A DNA stretch of 64,000 bases, from positions 26,536,001-26,600,000 of the forward strand of contig OZ260662.1 in NCBI GenBank assembly GCA_965285935.1, read 5' to 3'. Of the stretch, positions 5,900 through 43,669 are shown piece after piece; the first letter of the stretch is position 1; the number at the start of each line of letters is the position of its first letter. This stretch comes from Ophelia neglecta (Eukaryota). The notes beneath the pieces were generated by a model. That model saw only the letters and a program-made list of their open reading frames with translations, was not told where the DNA came from and made no database searches. The position numbers were made by a program, and so were the translations under genes.

Positions 5900-7700
5900 G
5901 CTACATGGGGCAAATCGGCCGCAAACCGAGGCTTAACAGACGATGCAGAAGGCGATCAACAAAAAGCTGCGGCTCTAAATCTCGTAAGAAACGCACCCAG
6001 GAGTACACGTACGGCACAGTTTGGAGGGCAATGCCCAAGCCCAACTAGGACTTGCCCTATCTGCAAGCAGGACAGTCGTGCTGATTTTGACCATTACCTT
6101 AGTACCTGCCCATTCCATCGTTAGAACAGACGTAACCTGATAAATACTCGCACTGTGGAGACCCATAATGACAACTATGAAGAGGAGGAGTTCATTAAGG
6201 GAACTGAATCCTAATCATCAACAATGATGAACCATGTGACGCCACAACAGCACGCGTTAGTGTGGGAATGTCACCCAAATTAACCTTGTTTTTAGGACTA
6301 GCCCATGCCTCTTCTTCTCGACACCGAAGCAGATGATAACCTCATTCGTAATGATGAGGCCCGCTATAAAGATATATCCTAACAACATCCAGACACAAGC
6401 TCAAGCTAATGGTGTCTCATACCTTGGTGTTGCCAGAAAGGTCCACACATCCTTCAAAAGAGGAGGAACATTTTCGATGCTATCGTAGTACAGTGCCTAG
6501 CCTCTCCAGTCATCGCAGGCTCCGCATTTCTAGCTGCCAGCGACATCACCGTCAACCAGGACTGAGTGAACCCACCCTTCCGGACATGTACCTATGACTC
6601 AAACAAGACAGCCAACAGTGATGCTTGCAATAGGCAGATCCATATTCAACGCACTCCTGTGACCAGTGTCATATGGCCTGGGGAGCTCTTAGAGTTACCA
6701 CCCCCACTACACATCCAACTACATAGCCATCAGTCCCATGGCTGGCATTGAATGCACACTAGTCAACAGTGAGTCCGAAACTTTTCCTGAGCGTACCGAA
6801 ACATCTCCCGTAGTAGGATATATACGGCTGCAAAACATCTATCCAGTATCTGTCAGAGTGCCCAAGCATTTTCAAATATTTCTAGCCAAACCACTATGTG
6901 GCAGTCTCGTTGACCCCCACAACCATGCTACACATGCCAAACCTACCTACATTGAGTGCTCTGAAACAAACTACAGCTCCAGCCCAGTACACTGCTACAG
7001 TACGCATTGACCCGGATAACCAGCTGCCGATCGAATATAATATTTACGCTCTATCACCGATGAGCTCTTCAATCCCAAATTCATTGGATACAATGGAGCC
7101 TCAGTGCCGTTTGGTGGGGAAAGACACCAGGCCCCAGCCTGCACTGATCTCTCTGGTGTGGACAACACAAGCTGCAGCATTGCCAGGTGGAAGCACAGCA
7201 TAATATCAAAGTTAACTAGTGCTTATTTACTTCAAATCCCCCTTTCCAAGAATTTCCTCAAGTACTGTGGGATCGCGACACCATTTAGAGGGGTACGTGT
7301 ATACGGCAGATGCGCCATAGGTACGCTTAGAATCGAATCTGCCCTAGAGGACCTGATGAATCCTGGCCGACCAACTAATGAAGGGCACGGCCGTAATAGA
7401 AGGTTGCCTACTGCGGGGGAAATCCCATCAATGAACAAATAGACAACTGGCGAGAGGTCCTCACCAAGTTAGCAAAAAACAACCTGCGCCTTTCCGCAGC
7501 CTAAACCGTTATCTGTCCCCAGAATGCTACAATCTCGGGGTGGCTATAGTCTGCTGGTCGTCTGAAGCCCTCCCACACTCTATTGCTACACTGAGTACAT
7601 GCCAGCTTCTACAAACAGTGTCAGAACTGCGAAGGCCATAGCTCATCTGGTACCCTTGGACGATATGGTGGCCCTGCCTAAGACTGACACCTGAGCCTGA
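5900..7700 (+). pseudogene. Heavily decayed Ty3/Gypsy gag-pol relic (zinc knuckle, aspartic protease, partial RT)
   Basis: Motifs in the expected order: CPICKQDSRADFDHYLSTC (6053-6109, CCHC); LLLDTEADDNLI (~6311, degenerate DTG); LFNPKFIGYNGAS (~7065); LTSAYLLQIPLSKNFLKYCGIATPFRGVRVYGRCAIG...ESALEDLM (7210-7360); AYCGG; NWREVLTKLAKNNLRLSAA*TVICP (7445-7520). Many stops, frameshifts and deletions; boundaries approximate; no paired LTRs found. Confidence 0.8.
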
Positions 7701-10700
7701 ATTAGCTTTAATCAGGCGGCATCCTTTCTTAGGCATGATACCGTGCCATTAGCGTGGTGTACACTCGGTGTTTACAGCACATGTGCATTACTTTAGCCAT
7801 TTTTTCAATGCACTTTAGACAGTTGTACAACAATTTTTAATGGTTCTAGGCAGCGTGTGTACCAGATTGTGTAAAATGAAAGGTGTAGAAAAGGAAGAAA
7901 AGGAGCGAGGATTATACAGTGGCCAATGTGAATGTTATATCTAGAAAGAAGTATAATGACCTAAAGAAAAAGGTTCATAAAGATGAAACCAAAAGGAAGC
8001 CACTTCCTAATAAGGTTTAAATAAATAGAGACTGGCACAATCGTCTTGTCAAAACGGGGAGAGTGAGCGGAAAATCTATCACCTCGACATGATCGGAAGT
8101 CAAAGCAGCTAGGGACCTGGTTATTGGTGATAGTTGGCCTCCGGCTGACGGTTCCTGAGGAATTCGAAACCTTTTCGATGCCCTATTTTTGATTAAGCTG
8201 TGTCTGCCGGTTACCGACTCGAGTGGGTCATATTAAGAATAGAGTTACTAGTTCTTCTTAGTAACAGTAATTTAATGTCTGACCACTGTTTGTCAGTTTC
8301 ATTGAACATTTGTCAGGTGATTGTCAAATAATTGTCAGTATAAGTCAGGGAGAGGAAATGACAAAATGAAAGTTTCTTAGTTCAGAGTCTCCACCTATAA
8401 TTTTGTTCTAGCTGATTTATCATTTTAGGTCACTTCTGATGATTTATATCTTGACTGTTATAACGATCTTACGTTCCAGGTACATTATAAATTTTCATCC
8501 TGAAAAATAATTAACAGATCTGACTTATTGATTTTCTTTCTTTATTTTTCCTTCTATATCAACACAAATATAAGGCTCAAATTAGTATCATTACTTTCTT
8601 TGCGCCATATAATACATTTATTGATAAATATTGAACGTTAGGTGTTCCTCAGTTTTAGATATCATCCAGAGTTGGCAATCATTAGCACATCTAGACATCT
8701 TATTCATCAACACCGAAATTTCAAAACAAAATATTTAAAACCTCAGGTAAAGTGAAAAATTCAGTGTTAGACCCAACTACAAAGGTGTGCCTTGGAAAAC
8801 ACCTTGCGCCCGAAACCTAAGAATGGCAGTAATACTTCCTTTTAAGACCGGGTTTTAGTTTTAAATTATAGAAAAAGCACGGCTAAAAGTGAGTTCGCAG
8901 AGGCAAAAGCACCAGGTGCTTCTTGTATTCTAAGTGCTCTCCGGCCTCCGGCAATCAACAAAGCATGCATACATACATACATAAGAGACCGCCATGGTAT
9001 GATTCAATACGTAGAATACTGGAAAACGATAATAAACCAATGCATGGTGAAAATGTTTTTGTTTTTAGACAAATGATATATTACGGGAGTATTTACAAAA
9101 CATAAATAATTCTTCAATATATAATAAAGTAATTGAGCAAACCAAAGCGGTTACCTGAAGTACCATATTGCAACAACTATTCCCAATATGCCTTTTATAT
9201 ATGATTTAAGGTATCATAAAACGGAACTCGGCTATTGTAGAATGTCGGCAATGCAAGCTCTTACGGCAAGAGAAATATCAATCGCCAGTTTAATAATAAA
9301 ATTTTGAAAACCTTTTTTTTTTTACCTAAATGACTCCCTGTGTACCATCTGAGAGATTTTCCATTTTTCCATGCATACATGCATGTAGACATTTATGCAC
9401 ACATACCAAAAAAAATTCACACATACATGTATGCACAATAACAAATACCCATAAATACATATATATGTCATACCAAACTCCACTTTTGTGTTCTATATCT
9501 TGTTTCTTCTGTAGTATTATTTGTAGTATTTGTAGACTTGTAGTATTATTCCCTAAGGCATCTCCCGAATCCACAGAAAGGCCAGGTTTCATGCCCACAC
9601 GTGTAAGGATTGCCTGGAGGTAAAAGGGTGGTTAATATAAACACATGGTCAATAAAGTGACAGTTTGTGTTTCCTCCCTTATATTTTATTCACCATGCTG
9701 TAGGTTGCAGCAGTGCAAACCTCGCTTCTTCTGCTGACCACTACTTATTGCAAGTTATATCAATTACACTGTTAATTTCGAAGCAAGCATATGAAATAAA
9801 TACATAAAAAGTACATATTTAAATAAATGGGCTTGGTTTAACTTCTATAATAATTTACCTATACATTAATATCAAATTTAAATTATAATTCTGCAAAGCA
9901 GGCCTATCAAATGTTTCAAATGATGCATTCGCTGTGTTATTTTTGGCAAACATACAAGTACTAACTATAACATACGAGAACAAATTTTACAACACCTGTG
10001 ATCTTTACCTATATGTGGCATTTTCGTTCTAGCTTATTACTCATATTTGCCAGTTAATGCCCAACCAAGACCTGTTTTCCTATGCGCGGCACCAATATAA
10101 ATATATTTTATCATTGCGATCAATTCAGATATATGCACGCACGTATACATTTAGCCAATTTGGATGACGAGCTGTTTTCTGTGCAACACACTGAAATCCA
10201 CCTGTGTCTCATATCATGCAACATACCTTACACATTCAAAGGTGAAATATGCTGCGATAGCACTCACAATTCGTAAATGATAAAAAAAAGATCTCAGTTC
10301 AGAAAACATATTTCTCTGAATCTCGTACAAAAAGGATCTATTTCTTTAAAAAATCAATTCAATTGATTTAATATTCGATTTATTGGTTTAGCACTATGCA
10401 GTCTAAAATTCCGGGAATGGGGTTGGATGTGGGTGGGCGGGGTTTGAGTGGGTTGTGGTGTAGGTGGGGGTGAGGTGAGTGGTGTAATTTCATAGACATT
10501 TGGTATTAACCTAAGCTTGGCCATACCAGGATAGTAATTATTGTCATTTACACAAATAATAAAGTGTGAAATATTGAAACAAAATAGGCTAAATTTGCCA
10601 TTAAAATTTGTAATAATATCTGTTAATGACAATCTTAAATTTACAGAATTAATGTATGTCATTAACACTTTACTGTTTATCATACATGCATATTGTTTGT

Positions 10701-38348: not shown

Positions 38349-38353
38349 GAAAC
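38349..38353 (+). repeat. Left target-site duplication GAAAC
   Basis: Identical 5-mer directly outside both ends of the LTR element (38349-38353 and 43665-43669). Confidence 0.9.
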
Positions 38354-38554
38354 TAGAGAATACTACAATTTTATACTATGTCTTGCTTGTAGTGACAATA
38401 TGTGTTCCTCTTATACCTTTGCATGTAGTATTAGAGTAGATTGTTAGAATAGACTATCTGTTGTGCTTACATCTATTTCCTTTGTGTTACAGATTGAGTG
38501 TGATCATTGTCTCTAATGGAAATAAAGCACAAAGAGTAGTCTAGTACTTATTTA
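38354..38554 (+). repeat. 5' LTR (201 bp, TA...TA)
   Basis: Direct repeat of 43464-43664; single mismatch C38513/T43623. Confidence 0.97.
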
Positions 38555-38565
38555 TGATCACACTC
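38555..38565 (+). promoter_or_regulatory. Non-tRNA primer-binding site complementary to LTR 38496-38506 (putative self-priming)
   Basis: TGATCACACTC is the exact reverse complement of GAGTGTGATCA (38496-38506), or 12 bp if A38554/T38507 is included. There is no TGG start as expected for tRNA-CCA priming. Confidence 0.75.
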
Positions 38566-38635
38566 TCTACCTGATCTCTGCAAACCTTGTCAGTCCTCAC
38601 CTTAGTGACTCTAACTCCTCTACTACTTATTCACC

Positions 38636-40444
38636 ATGCCACAGGTCGGATGTCCATTCCCTGACTGTGAATATGAGACTGACGATGTCTCAGAAATAGT
38701 GGTCGTCGCACTGCTCAACCTCCATGCCAAAAGTCACGAGCCCTCAGTCCCACCGCGACAGGCTGAGGCAGCAGTGAAGGCAGAGAAAGTGAAGCGCCCA
38801 ACTGTGTCCACTGCAGGCACAAATGAGGAATGGACTTATTTCCTCACACGATGGAAGGAGTACAAAGATGCCACTAAGGTCACTGGCAAGGACAAACTCA
38901 TTCAGCTATTGGAATGTTGTGATGAACCTTTACGAAAGGACCTCACACGCTCAGTTGGTGGCAGCCTCACTGACAATAGTGAGGATGACGTTCTTGCTGC
39001 AATCAAAAAACTTGCTGTACGAGAAGAGAATGCCATGGCGGCTAGAGTTTTCCTGCATGACATGAGGCAGGACAAAGATGAACCAATACGGTCATTTGGT
39101 GCCAGGATTCGCGGCCAAGCAGGAGTGTGTAAGTTCACCGTGGACTGCCCCAGATGCCAAGCAAATGTGGACTACACAGACTGCATCTTGCGAGATGTGT
39201 TATCCCGTGGACTTGCGGATCCTGAAATCCAGCTGGACCTCCTTGGTGACTCTAATCAGGACAGGACACTAGAGGAGGTTTTCCAGTTCATGGAGTCAAA
39301 GGAAGCAGGCAAACGTTCAGCCTCACGCCTACATGACTCTCAAGGGGCCCAGGCAGCTGCCAGTTCATATCGACATGCCAAAAAACAGACTGCTACAAGA
39401 CCAGACACTGATGTATGTACATATTGTGGCAAGAAAGGGCATGGCATTAGGGCACCCCCTCGTACCCGTAAATCTGAATGTTCAGCATACAATCATACAT
39501 GTGCACACTGTGGCATAAAGCACCACCTCGAGAGTGTTTGCCGCAGTAGGGACAAGCCACAGAAACCACGCACACCAGCAGCAGCTAACAGAGGTCAGTC
39601 TGCGCTTCTGGAATGTGAGGGTGCCGCCTCTGACACATGTGAGGGTGCCACCTTCAATACACTCTGCACAGTGACTGCAGCCAGCAACCAACAGGGTGGA
39701 CAATCACTCATGATCGAGCACCATGTTTACAACCAACTTTGTGACATGTGGATGCGCCAGGGCTCAAGACCTCAGCCTTTTATTCAGGTCAGATGCACTG
39801 TGCGCCCAGAAGACTACACTGCCCTAGGCTGTAAGCAAGACAGGCAAACTGGATCAGCCACCCTCTCCGATATAGCCGATACTGGCAGCCAGAGCTGCTT
39901 CGCAGGTTTAGATGCCATCCGGCATCTTGGCCTATCGCGCAAGGATCTCATCCCAGTCACTATGAGAATGCATGCCGCCAACAATGCTGGTATTAATATC
40001 CTGGGCGCAGTGATTCTTCGATTCTCAGGGAAGGTTGCATCTGGCAAAATGTTGGAGACCCGTCAGTTGGTATACATCACGGATAGCTCAGACAAAGTCT
40101 TTCTCAGTCGAGAGGCATGTTCTGACCTAGGAATGATACCACTTGACTTCCCAAAAGTCGGTGGGGCCTTAAGAGTCAGCTCCATACCTTCAGGCTCCAA
40201 GCAAGGTACCCAGAACTCACAGGTTACTGTTTGCCCCAACCAACTCGAGAAGCCCTTGGCCACTGACAATGGTCTGACAGCCCCATGTGACTGCCCGCGG
40301 CGCCAGCTCCCACCTCCACCGCCCACTTCACTCCCCTTCGCCTCAACAGAAGGAAACAGGGCGAAACTCCAGCAATGGCTGGTAGACTATTACAGATCCA
40401 GCACATTTAACATGTGTGAGCATCAACCCCTACCAATGATATAA
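38636..40444 (+). CDS. gag: Gag-protease part of the polyprotein (602 aa, ends at a probably mutational in-frame TAA)
   Basis: Good start context (caccATG); gag capsid-like region (MRQDKDEPIRSFGARIRGQAGVCKF); knuckles CTYCGKKGH-x12-C and CAHCGIKHHLESVC (39416-39541); protease IADTGSQS (D at 39878). Confidence 0.9.
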   Translation: MPQVGCPFPDCEYETDDVSEIVVVALLNLHAKSHEPSVPPRQAEAAVKAEKVKRPTVSTAGTNEEWTYFLTRWKEYKDATKVTGKDKLIQLLECCDEPLRKDLTRSVGGSLTDNSEDDVLAAIKKLAVREENAMAARVFLHDMRQDKDEPIRSFGARIRGQAGVCKFTVDCPRCQANVDYTDCILRDVLSRGLADPEIQLDLLGDSNQDRTLEEVFQFMESKEAGKRSASRLHDSQGAQAAASSYRHAKKQTATRPDTDVCTYCGKKGHGIRAPPRTRKSECSAYNHTCAHCGIKHHLESVCRSRDKPQKPRTPAAANRGQSALLECEGAASDTCEGATFNTLCTVTAASNQQGGQSLMIEHHVYNQLCDMWMRQGSRPQPFIQVRCTVRPEDYTALGCKQDRQTGSATLSDIADTGSQSCFAGLDAIRHLGLSRKDLIPVTMRMHAANNAGINILGAVILRFSGKVASGKMLETRQLVYITDSSDKVFLSREACSDLGMIPLDFPKVGGALRVSSIPSGSKQGTQNSQVTVCPNQLEKPLATDNGLTAPCDCPRRQLPPPPPTSLPFASTEGNRAKLQQWLVDYYRSSTFNMCEHQPLPMI

Positions 40445-41803
40445 GGCCCACCAATGAGACTCATGGTGGATCCCAGTGCCACACCAGTCACTCATCACAA
40501 GCCCCTCCCAGTCCCCCTACACTGGCGGGATGAGATCAAGGCAGGACTGGACCAGGATGTCAGACTGGGAGTGATCGAACCTGTACCCATTGGGGAGCCA
40601 GCCACCTGGTGTCACCACATGGTGGTATGTGCCAAGAAAAATGGCAAGCCACGCAGAACTGTTGACCTTCAGGCACTCAACCTCCATGCAACACGTGAGA
40701 CACACCATACTCAGTCTCCATTCCACCAGGCTAGGTCGGTACCACATCATACCAAAAAGACCGTGTTTGATGCATGGAACGGTTACCACAGTGTGCCAAT
40801 ACATGAGGATGATCACCACCTCACAACCTTCATCACCCCATGGGGCAGATACAGGTACCGTACTGCACCACAAGGCTACATTGCATCTGGTGATGGCTAC
40901 ACACGTCGCTATGATGAAATCATTGCCCATATTCCACAGAAAACTAAATGTGTCGATGACTCCTTGCTATGGTCAAACACTACAGAAGAGAGCTTCTGGC
41001 AGGCAGTCAACTGGCTTGATCTCTGTGGTCGGAACGGCATCACCTTCAATGTGGAGAAGTTTGTCTTTGCTGCAGACACTGTTGAATTTGCTGGCTTCGA
41101 GATCACCCTTGACAGTGTACGCCCCTGTAGCAGGTACCTTCAGGCTATCCTAGACTTCCCAACACCCAAGAACATCACAGATGTCCGTTCATGGTTTGGG
41201 TTGGTCAATCAAGTCTCTTATGCCTTCAGCATGGCAGGCAGAATGCTGCCTTTTCGACAGCTTCTCAAACCTGGCACACCATTCCATTGGTCTGAAGAAC
41301 TCGACAGTGCCTTCGAAGAGTCAAAGCACGCCATTGTGAGTGAGATTGAGGAAGGTGTTCAAATATATGACAAGCGCAGACCCACCTGCATTGCCACAGA
41401 TTGGGCCAAGACTGGCATCGGCTTCTGGTTGTTCCAGAAGCAATGCGATTGTCCAGGTACCAAACCATTTTGCTGTCGAGATGGCTGGAAAATAACACTT
41501 GTAGGCAACCGATTCACACATTCCGCGGAATCCCGCTATGCACCCATTGAGGGAGAAGCCCTTGCTGTTGCCTATGCTCTGGATAATGCTCGCTTCTTTG
41601 TCCTAGGCTGCAATGACCTCATCCTTGCAGTAGACCATAAGCCTTTGCTCAAGGTCTTTGGAAACCGTTCACTTGATGAGATAGCCAACACCCGCCTGAG
41701 AAACCTCAAGGAAAAAACCCTGCGCTATAAGTTTCGCATTGTGCACATCCCTGGCGCAAAACACAAAGCAGCAGATGCCGTGTCCAGACACCCAACAGGC
41801 TGA
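40445..41803 (+). pseudogene. pol: Reverse transcriptase + RNase H part of pol (same frame as gag-PR)
   Basis: RT motifs KKNGKPRRTVDLQALN, VFDAWNGYH, TTFITPWGRYRY..APQG, KCVDD (40949-40960), VEFAG. RNase H acidic residues in TDWAKTGIG, IEGEALAV, VDHKPL, ADAVSR. In frame with 38636 (offset 1818 nt to ATG 40454); ends at a frameshift near 41800. Confidence 0.95.
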
Positions 41804-42800
41804 GTTACCCGAGAAATTACATCTGGAGGATGACATTGCATCTGTCTGGGCTTCATTCGACCTGTTCCCCATGAATGAATTCCGCCACTCATTCTTGGGA
41901 GGGATTCGAGTAACAGACTGCACCAGTAACCCAAGCAATGTAGATGTTGAAGTCAGAGGCTCTGCTTTATCTGCCCTGGACTCGCTGCAGTCTGTAACCT
42001 GGGACCAAGTGCGATTGGGAACAGCAAGCGATGAAAAAATGAACCTGCTCCTGTCTATTATTGAAGCTGGTATGCCACAATTCCGCAACGAGCTCCCTGC
42101 ACCACTACGTGAATATCACCAGCTCAGGGAGCACCTGTACACGTCGGATGGAGTCATTCTTTATAAGGACCGTGTTGTCATCCCCCCGAGCCTTCGTGAA
42201 GCCATCCTGTCAGCACTCTATTCTGCTCACCAGGGGGTCACAGCGATGACAGCACGGGCAGAGTCCTCTGTCTTCTGGCCAGGCATCACCCCAGCTATCA
42301 ATTCGACCCGACTGAACTGTACCCACTGTAACCGTATGGCTCCCTCTCAGCCTAGTGCTCCACCAACCCCACCTGTCCTCCCAGCCTACCCATTTCAGTG
42401 CATATGTGCAGACTTTTTCACCTACAGAGGTGTCAACTACCTCGTGATGGTTGACAGATACTCCAATTGGCCTATCGTGGAGAGGACAACAGGTGGTGCC
42501 AAAGCCCTCGTTGACAGCCTGCGTCGTACCTTTGCCACATACGGCATACCTGATGAACTCGCCTCCGATGGTGGCCCTGAGTTCACTTCCACCCAGACTA
42601 GGCAGTTTCTCAAGGACTGGGGTGTGCACCATAGGCTCTCCTCTGTTGCTTTCCACCACAGTAACTGTCGTGCTGAGGTGGGCGTTAAGACAGTGAAGAG
42701 AATGATCACTGATAACACTGGACCCAATGGAGAGCTCGACACGGACGCTGTGCAACGTGCCATTCTCCAATATCGGAACACACCTGATCCCGATACAAAC
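41801..42800 (+). pseudogene. pol: Integrase (zinc-binding + DDE core), frameshifted and C-terminally deleted
   Basis: Within ORF 41739-42851: LYSAHQG...CTHC (HHCC with the first H as Y), [29 protein letters not shown]. Homology stops abruptly after YRNTPDPDT. Confidence 0.93.
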
Positions 42801-42801
42801 G

Positions 42802-43320
42802 GGAAAGTACATTCCTGTGCAACTGCCTATGCCTCGTCGCACCATTCATGAAGATATCCGACATTTACCAGTGAAGTTAGCACCTCCAGTACAACAGCGT
42901 CCCACTATACAGCAACCAGCCACGGCAGCAAGGAGGTTAGCAGTCCCTGGTCCAACTGAGCAGGTCTCCGAGCAGCCTCCTACCCAATATGGTAAAGCTT
43001 CAGGAGCTCTGCCCTACATCCAGGACACTCAACCCGCCCCTGAACATCTGCTTGATGTTCCAGAACCACCTGTGCCTCATGCTGGGGATGCCGAGCAACC
43101 TTACCACGCAGCTCCTCCTGCTGAGGGTGCTGGCCAGCCTGGCATTGGACAGGACAGCACTCCGCAGGCTCATACTCCACAGAGGATGCTAGCCCGACTC
43201 TTACCCCATAACAAACCCGGTCTGCGCGAGCCCCTGGGTCACTCTGAGCCCAACCATGATCCTGCTCCACCCACAGGCCCAGATGGACAACCCCTGCGTC
43301 GCTCCAGCCGGCATAAATAA
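42802..43320 (+). pseudogene. Pro/Gln/Ala-rich C-terminal tail of pol, out of frame after the deletion
   Basis: ORF 42727-43320 resumes [14 protein letters not shown]... and ends LARLLPHNKPGLRE...LRRSSRHK*, 143 bp before the 3' LTR. Confidence 0.7.
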
Positions 43321-43445
43321 CTTAGGCCTTGTAACCCATAAGTTTAATGACTGAACTCTTTTCAACAACTTTTATCAGTTTTATTCTGCTCTTTGCTTGT
43401 CCCTTTAGTTATATTGGTGTATAAGAACTTTCCCAGAAGAGCCTT

Positions 43446-43461
43446 AGAAAACTTGGGGGGG
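43446..43461 (+). promoter_or_regulatory. Polypurine tract
   Basis: agaaaacttggggggg, ending 2 nt (CA) before the 3' LTR. Confidence 0.85.
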
Positions 43462-43463
43462 CA

Positions 43464-43664
43464 TAGAGAATACTACAATTTTATACTATGTCTTGCTTGT
43501 AGTGACAATATGTGTTCCTCTTATACCTTTGCATGTAGTATTAGAGTAGATTGTTAGAATAGACTATCTGTTGTGCTTACATCTATTTCCTTTGTGTTAC
43601 AGATTGAGTGTGATCATTGTCTTTAATGGAAATAAAGCACAAAGAGTAGTCTAGTACTTATTTA
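43464..43664 (+). repeat. 3' LTR (201 bp, TA...TA)
   Basis: Direct repeat of 38354-38554; preceded by the PPT and followed by the TSD GAAAC. Confidence 0.97.
43631..43636 (+). terminator. Putative polyadenylation signal AATAAA in the 3' LTR (copy at 38521-38526)
   Basis: The only AATAAA in the LTR, 28 nt before the LTR end. Confidence 0.6.
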
Positions 43665-43669
43665 GAAAC
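43665..43669 (+). repeat. Right target-site duplication GAAAC
   Basis: Matches 38349-38353. Confidence 0.9.

Follow-up and report, generated by a model that had tools for sequence, protein, structure and literature searches.

Structure of the element

Positions 38349-43669 of a 64,000-nucleotide stretch of the Ophelia neglecta genome (GenBank assembly GCA_965285935.1, contig OZ260662.1, positions 26,536,001 to 26,600,000 of the forward strand; hereafter the window) are occupied by a Ty3/Gypsy long terminal repeat (LTR) retrotransposon. It is a young, damaged copy of a clade of animal Ty3/Gypsy elements. The reading that we favour, and hold to be probable, is that LTRs of this clade run TA...TA within 5-bp target-site duplications (TSDs), that the 10-15 bases at the 5' end of their own RNA likely serve its members as the primer of reverse transcription, and that an altered integrase likely accepts the TA ends. 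The features of the window copy are as follows.

38349..38353, + strand: left 5-bp TSD, GAAAC
38354..38554, + strand: 5' LTR, 201 bp, TA...TA
38488..38495, + strand: initiator-like stretch, abutting the primer segment on its upstream side (from sequence; initiator consensus TCAKTY, PMC3601003)
38496..38506, + strand: candidate self-primer of 11 nt, exact complement of the primer-binding site
38521..38526, + strand: AATAAA, likely poly(A) signal from its sequence, which would act in the 3' LTR
38555..38565, + strand: candidate primer-binding site (PBS) abutting the 5' LTR, with its complement inside the LTR and lacking a tRNA-type TGG start
38636..40444, + strand: presumed gag-protease part of the polyprotein (from position), with a stop codon at its end
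40445..41803, + strand: reverse transcriptase (RT) and RNase H (Pfam RVT_1, RT_RNaseH, RT_RNaseH_2)
41700..42851, + strand: integrase zinc finger and core, in a frame other than that of RT, with the frame break near 41800 (Pfam Integrase_H2C2, rve; PDB)
42651..42677, + strand: integrase segment up to the catalytic Glu, with His and Cys in place of the usual Gln and the almost invariant Gly of other Gypsy integrases
42798..42803, + strand: site of a ~340-bp deletion within the integrase region
43455..43463, + strand: polypurine G-tract plus CA, abutting the 3' LTR; the final two bases vary among families
43464..43664, + strand: 3' LTR, 201 bp, TA...TA
43665..43669, + strand: right 5-bp TSD, GAAAC

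The domain order RT-RNase H-integrase found by Pfam is that of Gypsy, and the top PDB matches of both RT and integrase are to Ty3, with foamy-virus integrase also matched. We take 38636..40444 to be gag and protease from motifs as well as from position; Pfam gave no match in this region. The family to which the copy belongs codes for a single gag-pol frame without env and without a chromodomain, and the window copy has been damaged by the stop codon, the frame break and the deletion. Its two LTRs differ by 1 mismatch. LTR pairs within the family are 0-2 bases apart, and the insertions are therefore recent. No tRNA gene was found in the window, and the element has no Rfam match along its length.

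TA...TA ends and target-site duplications

The left boundary reads GAAAC, TAGAG...ATTTA, TG (38349-38556), and the right boundary G7-CA, TAGAG...ATTTA, GAAAC (43455-43669). The sequence-only reading had taken these ends as TA...TA in place of TG...CA, and had proposed that termini and TSDs be tabulated over independent insertions. A genome search with the window LTR gave 13 matches, which make up six two-LTR copies, with the TSDs GAAAC, CCTAT, GCCAT, GTGTT, CTTTT and GTATA, and one more insertion, rearranged internally, whose TSD is ATCAC. All seven end in TA...TA, and all seven TSDs are distinct and 5 bp long. The window copy by itself is also compatible with a 6-bp TSD (GAAACT) and an LTR start of AG. 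This alternative was rejected, as it fits the window copy only (1/7 in the family) and is possible in 11/31 insertions of the clade at large. Post-insertion decay was likewise rejected, since the same ends recur across copies and families.

A search of the host genome with RT identified three further related families (B, C and D, the window family being A), and a metagenome scan supplied more loci, of which the best 80 of 123 were used. For 31 two-LTR insertions of the clade, TSDs were searched across shifted LTR boundaries. The 5-bp TSD is exact at TA...TA in 26; among the others, one is ambiguous because it lies within a TAA repeat, one reads TA...AA and three lack an exact TSD at this position. 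TG...CA is the outcome for none of the 31. The TA...TA ends are real, inherited and clade-wide. As a control, 20 other host Gypsy loci were examined, and 18 gave LTR pairs, mostly with TG...CA ends and a TGG-type site; their boundaries were set automatically, and several are one base off or wrong.

The 3' LTR-end dinucleotide across 28 families is TA in 23, GA in 3 and CA in 2. The GA ends belong to L073, L099/L100 and L137; L099 starts with TA, and no TSD is available for these loci. Elements of a TA...GA form may therefore exist. The 26 typed target duplications show a mild bias, with G at position 1 in 12/26, never G at position 2, and mostly A or T at positions 2-4. A solo LTR of family B (L197, G000:C9:71154416-71154585) has TA...TA ends and the TSD ATATT. 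The rearranged insertion of family A (L053, G000:C2 ~54.10 Mb) has TA at both ends, but only 13 nt of its 5' LTR are left, after which an inverted 831-bp internal piece is fused to the 3' end; autointegration or another aberrant event seems to have produced it.

Bases flanking the LTRs

The sequence-only reading had also regarded the CA before the 3' LTR and the TG after the 5' LTR as mirror-image 2-nt overhangs of a linear cDNA, 5'-CATA...TATG-3', from both ends of which integrase trims TG symmetrically. Such trimming would be compatible with self-priming if the primer were cut two bases earlier and the TG copied as DNA. Both dinucleotides are indeed present in the window, all three TA families of the host genome (A, B and C) have LTRs flanked by CA and TG, and the arrangement of a G-tract and then a short spacer recalls retroviruses, whose integrase takes off 2-3 nt in 3' processing (PMC12789967). 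However, the two do not form a conserved symmetric pair. Among TA families, CA precedes the 3' LTR solely in A, B and C; elsewhere, 19 TA-start families have GA in its place and 2 have GG, with two further GA cases recorded separately, and none of the metagenome loci has CA there. The canonical TG...CA element L157 of the same genome likewise carries CA at this place. From the GA and GG of most families it follows that the purine tract reaches the LTR.

On the other side, the TG found after the LTR in 25 of 28 families moves with the end of the primer segment inside the LTR: the pairs of post-LTR bases and primer end are TG/CA in those 25, TC/GA in 2 and TA/TA in 1, independently of the polypurine side. 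A self-complementary PBS therefore begins with these bases. Symmetric overhangs are unlikely, although 2 nt may be removed at the polypurine end.

A primer-binding site complementary to the LTR

In the window copy, 38555-38565 is the exact reverse complement, over 11 nt, of 38496-38506 in the LTR, and T38507 can pair too, with the final LTR base A38554. In all 11 elements with a defined 5' LTR (10 bounded by an exact or likely TSD, and L076 by its LTR pair), the cognate match of PBS and LTR is 9-16 nt. Non-cognate pairs (n=110) reach at most 6 nt, with a mean of 4.1, and dinucleotide shuffles equalled the observed match in 0-2 of 2000 per element. A gag start and sufficient upstream DNA were present in 61 of 86 loci, and these fall into 35 families. 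LTR and PBS form a duplex of 10 bp or more in 28/35 families against 1/35 in a control region of the same size (by locus, 47/61 against 2/61). In the 18 LTR pairs of other host Gypsy elements, self-complementarity is no longer than 6 nt. The geometry is common to 28/28 families, in that the last A of the LTR pairs with the T following the primer, and the letters of the duplex differ from family to family.

Covariation is seen at two levels. Over duplex positions 2-10 of 27 duplex-bearing families, 88 changes are required on the RT tree, and pairing is always kept; because the families were preselected for the duplex, it is how many changes occurred that carries the information. Compensatory changes also occur inside families (L048/L050 and L063/L064). 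In many families pairing ends exactly at the A of TCAGTT, a form of the initiator consensus TCAKTY (PMC3601003). This stop matches the pattern of Tf1, in which the RNA's first 11 bases anneal to the PBS and RNase H cleaves between bases 11 and 12 (PMC7175516, PMC4600332). For the window copy, the transcription start is predicted within 38491-38497, and the predicted 5' RNA folds into the LTR/PBS stem. It is likely from this pattern of pairing that the clade starts reverse transcription with a segment of its own RNA and not with a host tRNA.

The same duplex could instead be a regulatory or packaging hairpin, with a tRNA fragment or another small host RNA as the primer. This we regard as very unlikely, as the 28 PBS sequences are distinct and each matches only its own LTR, from the first base after the LTR onwards; none of them opens with TGG, while TGG-type sites are kept in other Gypsy elements of the host. 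Another possibility is that the primer is produced by splicing or trans-splicing, since a pyrimidine tract and YAG stand directly before it in families A-D, and family C has a branch-point-like CTAAT. However, removal of GT-AG introns, which bears on cis splicing only, failed to lengthen the match in 9/10 elements, so that a primer made at a cis-splice junction is unsupported; the remaining element gained 2 nt with a weak donor. Moreover, pairing in many families takes in the AG and stops at the A of TCAGTT. We find an origin by splicing barely credible.

Some further observations concern the duplex. TCTCTA at 38564-38569, in the PBS and just beyond it, complements the first 6 nt of the LTR (38354-38359); it differs in one sister copy and is probably due to chance. 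A decayed element of family D (L051, G000:C5 ~38.36 Mb) has a 16-nt complement of LTR and PBS and, upstream, a 768-bp tandem duplication. In 17 families the duplex ends at an A that is preceded in the genome by a base other than G; C follows as the next base of the PBS in 13/17, and these 13 (L063, L074-L076, L082, L087-L089, L098, L099, L106, L109 and L119) all belong to one subclade. This C may have arisen by copying of the RNA cap.

The integrase motif

Altered end specificity of the integrase was part of the sequence-only reading; a shifted end preference is probable, and it now has a correlate in the protein. Integrases of the TA branch carry PHxN[C/N/S/T] in 31/31 families with a readable motif (of 36), in a segment that runs to the catalytic Glu; position 3 is His, and position 6 is Cys, Asn, Ser or Thr. 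By contrast, position 6 is Gly in 3/3 sister-branch families, 16/16 other host Gypsy elements and 2/2 chromodomain elements, and position 3 is mostly Gln, giving PQxNG as the prevailing form. The window segment aligns to HPQTDG of Ty3 and to the corresponding motif of foamy-virus integrase. In the latter, the Pro-Gln and the Gly at the aligned positions reportedly touch the C:G pair that is penultimate at the viral end. The changed motif of the TA branch is likely to recognise TA ends.

Phylogenetic position

The clade is split from 18 other host Gypsy families by a long, fully supported branch. Its sister branch (L125, L126 and L133; 54-58% RT identity) has a self-pairing PBS and a PQSNG integrase. 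In an unrooted 51-row tree from a quick search, with one short row omitted, the clade stands among host elements with tRNA-type sites, away from a chromodomain group made up of two chromodomain-bearing elements and seven homologues, fungal and frog sequences among them (branch support 100). We call these neighbouring elements Mag-like, a presumptive label taken from their type of PBS.

The position in the tree bears on whether the clade could be a divergent Tf1/sushi chromovirus that has lost its chromodomain and inherited self-priming. Its layout of PBS and LTR is the same as in Tf1 and Tj1 (PMC4600332, PMC7175516), and it sits on a long branch. Against this, besides its place among the tRNA-primed Mag-like elements, an approximately unbiased (AU) test rejected a grouping of the clade and its nearest relatives with the chromodomain group (p-AU 9.4e-05; 42/51 rows, LG+G4). 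The chromodomain PF00385 is absent from a sister copy and from 6 related polyproteins, and is present in L160 and L161. With no chromodomain and the chromodomain grouping rejected, self-priming likely arose independently of the chromodomain elements, and descent from a chromovirus appears highly improbable.

The named homologues belong to a mussel, two sea slugs, an octocoral and an eel. The ESM Atlas returned generic RT clusters, and cluster look-ups with 20 distant proteins gave two named clusters, both crustacean. One related polyprotein, P0159, has a SAM domain at its N terminus (Pfam SAM_2, 25.8 bits against a cut-off of 20.5). A scan of viral contigs with a distant relative gave one weak match, which was not used. 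Elsewhere in the window, positions 6001-8000 have a G+C content of up to 0.47 against a background of 0.35-0.39, with C and A skew; they contain no open reading frame of 150 aa and are possibly another decayed element.

A model for self-priming and integration at TA ends

In the model that we favour, the transcript would begin at the initiator-like A just ahead of the primer segment, and its 5' end would fold back on the PBS. RNase H would then cut after the final primer base (CA|T), as in Tf1, so that minus-strand DNA would start opposite the last A of the LTR. Plus-strand synthesis would copy the primer and thereby rewrite the PBS in every cycle, which would explain the perfect covariation. 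The G-rich polypurine tract would prime the plus strand at the LTR or within 2-3 nt of it. Finally, integrase would join A-3' ends, its preference for the penultimate base having shifted or been relaxed, a change tied to the Gln-to-His and Gly-to-Cys/Asn/Ser/Thr substitutions before the catalytic Glu.

Several points weigh against this model or limit it. Self-priming is read from DNA sequence, and the 85-nt fold of the window copy is only modestly stable (z -1.95, with 9/200 shuffles equally good). A 10-bp duplex is missing from 7/35 families; one of these gave a 14-bp duplex in another analysis, and the others are unexplained or decayed. The TA end is not absolute, as three families finish in GA, and one of them, L137, combines the GA 3' end with a PQSNG integrase. 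The correlation between integrase and ends is confined to one branch and may therefore reflect one historical event and not a cause; His also occurs in 5/24 more distant proteins, whatever their LTR ends may be. The reference sequences of the tree include no Tf1, sushi or named Mag sequence. In the sister branch, the ends appear to be TG...CA, as read from single-LTR contigs bounded by the polypurine tract and the PBS, without a TSD. Since this branch self-pairs but reads TG...CA with PQSNG, self-priming would be older than the TA ends.

Put at its widest, the proposal is that these elements represent a widespread, undescribed animal Gypsy lineage, that its self-priming arose independently of Tf1/sushi, that one branch rewired its integrase from CA to TA by two substitutions beside the catalytic Glu, and that the C past the duplex is an RNA cap copied by RT. 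We put this forward tentatively, as a possibility somewhat short of an even chance.

The terminal CA ranks among the most conserved traits of integration by retroviruses and LTR elements. A TA clade, a CA-ended sister and a two-residue integrase signature together offer a ready comparison for what reads the penultimate base pair. Priming without tRNA also seems to have originated separately in this clade, which supplies dozens of primer and PBS pairs that covary in nature, and such priming, if true, might allow escape from host control exerted via tRNA fragments. Tools that demand TG...CA ends or a tRNA site would overlook or mis-trim these young elements.

Comparison with known systems

TA...TA ends and self-priming are each already known, and their combination was found in no report. 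Within the literature searched, with Repbase and most subscription journals outside its scope, no non-chromoviral animal Gypsy clade with TA...TA ends or self-priming is described. The clade may be one of the MolGy or PolGy groups, which are names from RT trees (PMC6238403, PMC8556966) and for which no account of LTR ends or PBS was found; motif searches in the readable MolGy/PolGy supplements were empty, the FASTA files of PMC8556966 being outside the search.

Within the host genome, the nearest RT matches of the clade are elements with TGG-type sites. These sites are presumably of the Leu/Ser type. The Mag lineage (clades A, B and C; MolGy3, MolGy11, PolGy1) has in common with the clade one gag-pol frame, no env, short LTRs and a 5-bp TSD, although RT identity between the two is only ~30%. 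Mag A and C have TG...CA ends in Table 3 of PMC3601003, in contrast to TA...TA, and they have tRNA-Leu/Ser sites (PMC3286476), whereas 0/28 PBS sequences of the clade start with TGG. LTRs without TG...CA are also known from Zam and other errantiviruses, which are animal Gypsy elements as well (AGTTA...TAAYT; PMC3601003, Table 3). However, these are primed by tRNA-Ser/Lys/Leu and bear env (PMC13524379), and the clade has neither env nor AG...YT ends.

In plants, TA...TA termini are an inherited trait of Copia elements of lotus, Arabidopsis and grape (PMC9804982). These belong to another superfamily and kingdom and have integrase before RT, whereas RT precedes integrase in the clade, and the available portion of PMC9804982 draws no tie to self-priming or to an integrase motif. 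Self-priming has been predicted for the plant Copia lineage TAR and for Tcn1 chromoviruses from a complement of PBS and LTR that spans 10 bp or more (PMC6317226). As TAR belongs to Copia and Tcn1 groups with Tf1/sushi, neither is an animal non-chromoviral Gypsy lineage like the clade.

The closest likeness in priming is to Tf1 and Tf2 of Schizosaccharomyces pombe, Tj1 and the Tf1/sushi chromoviruses, in which, as in the clade, the PBS complements a segment inside the LTR at the predicted 5' end of the RNA (PMC4600332, PMC7175516). The clade differs from them in having no chromodomain, an RT distant from those of chromodomain elements, TA...TA ends and marine-animal hosts, and cleavage of its primer would follow the Tf1 scheme by analogy.

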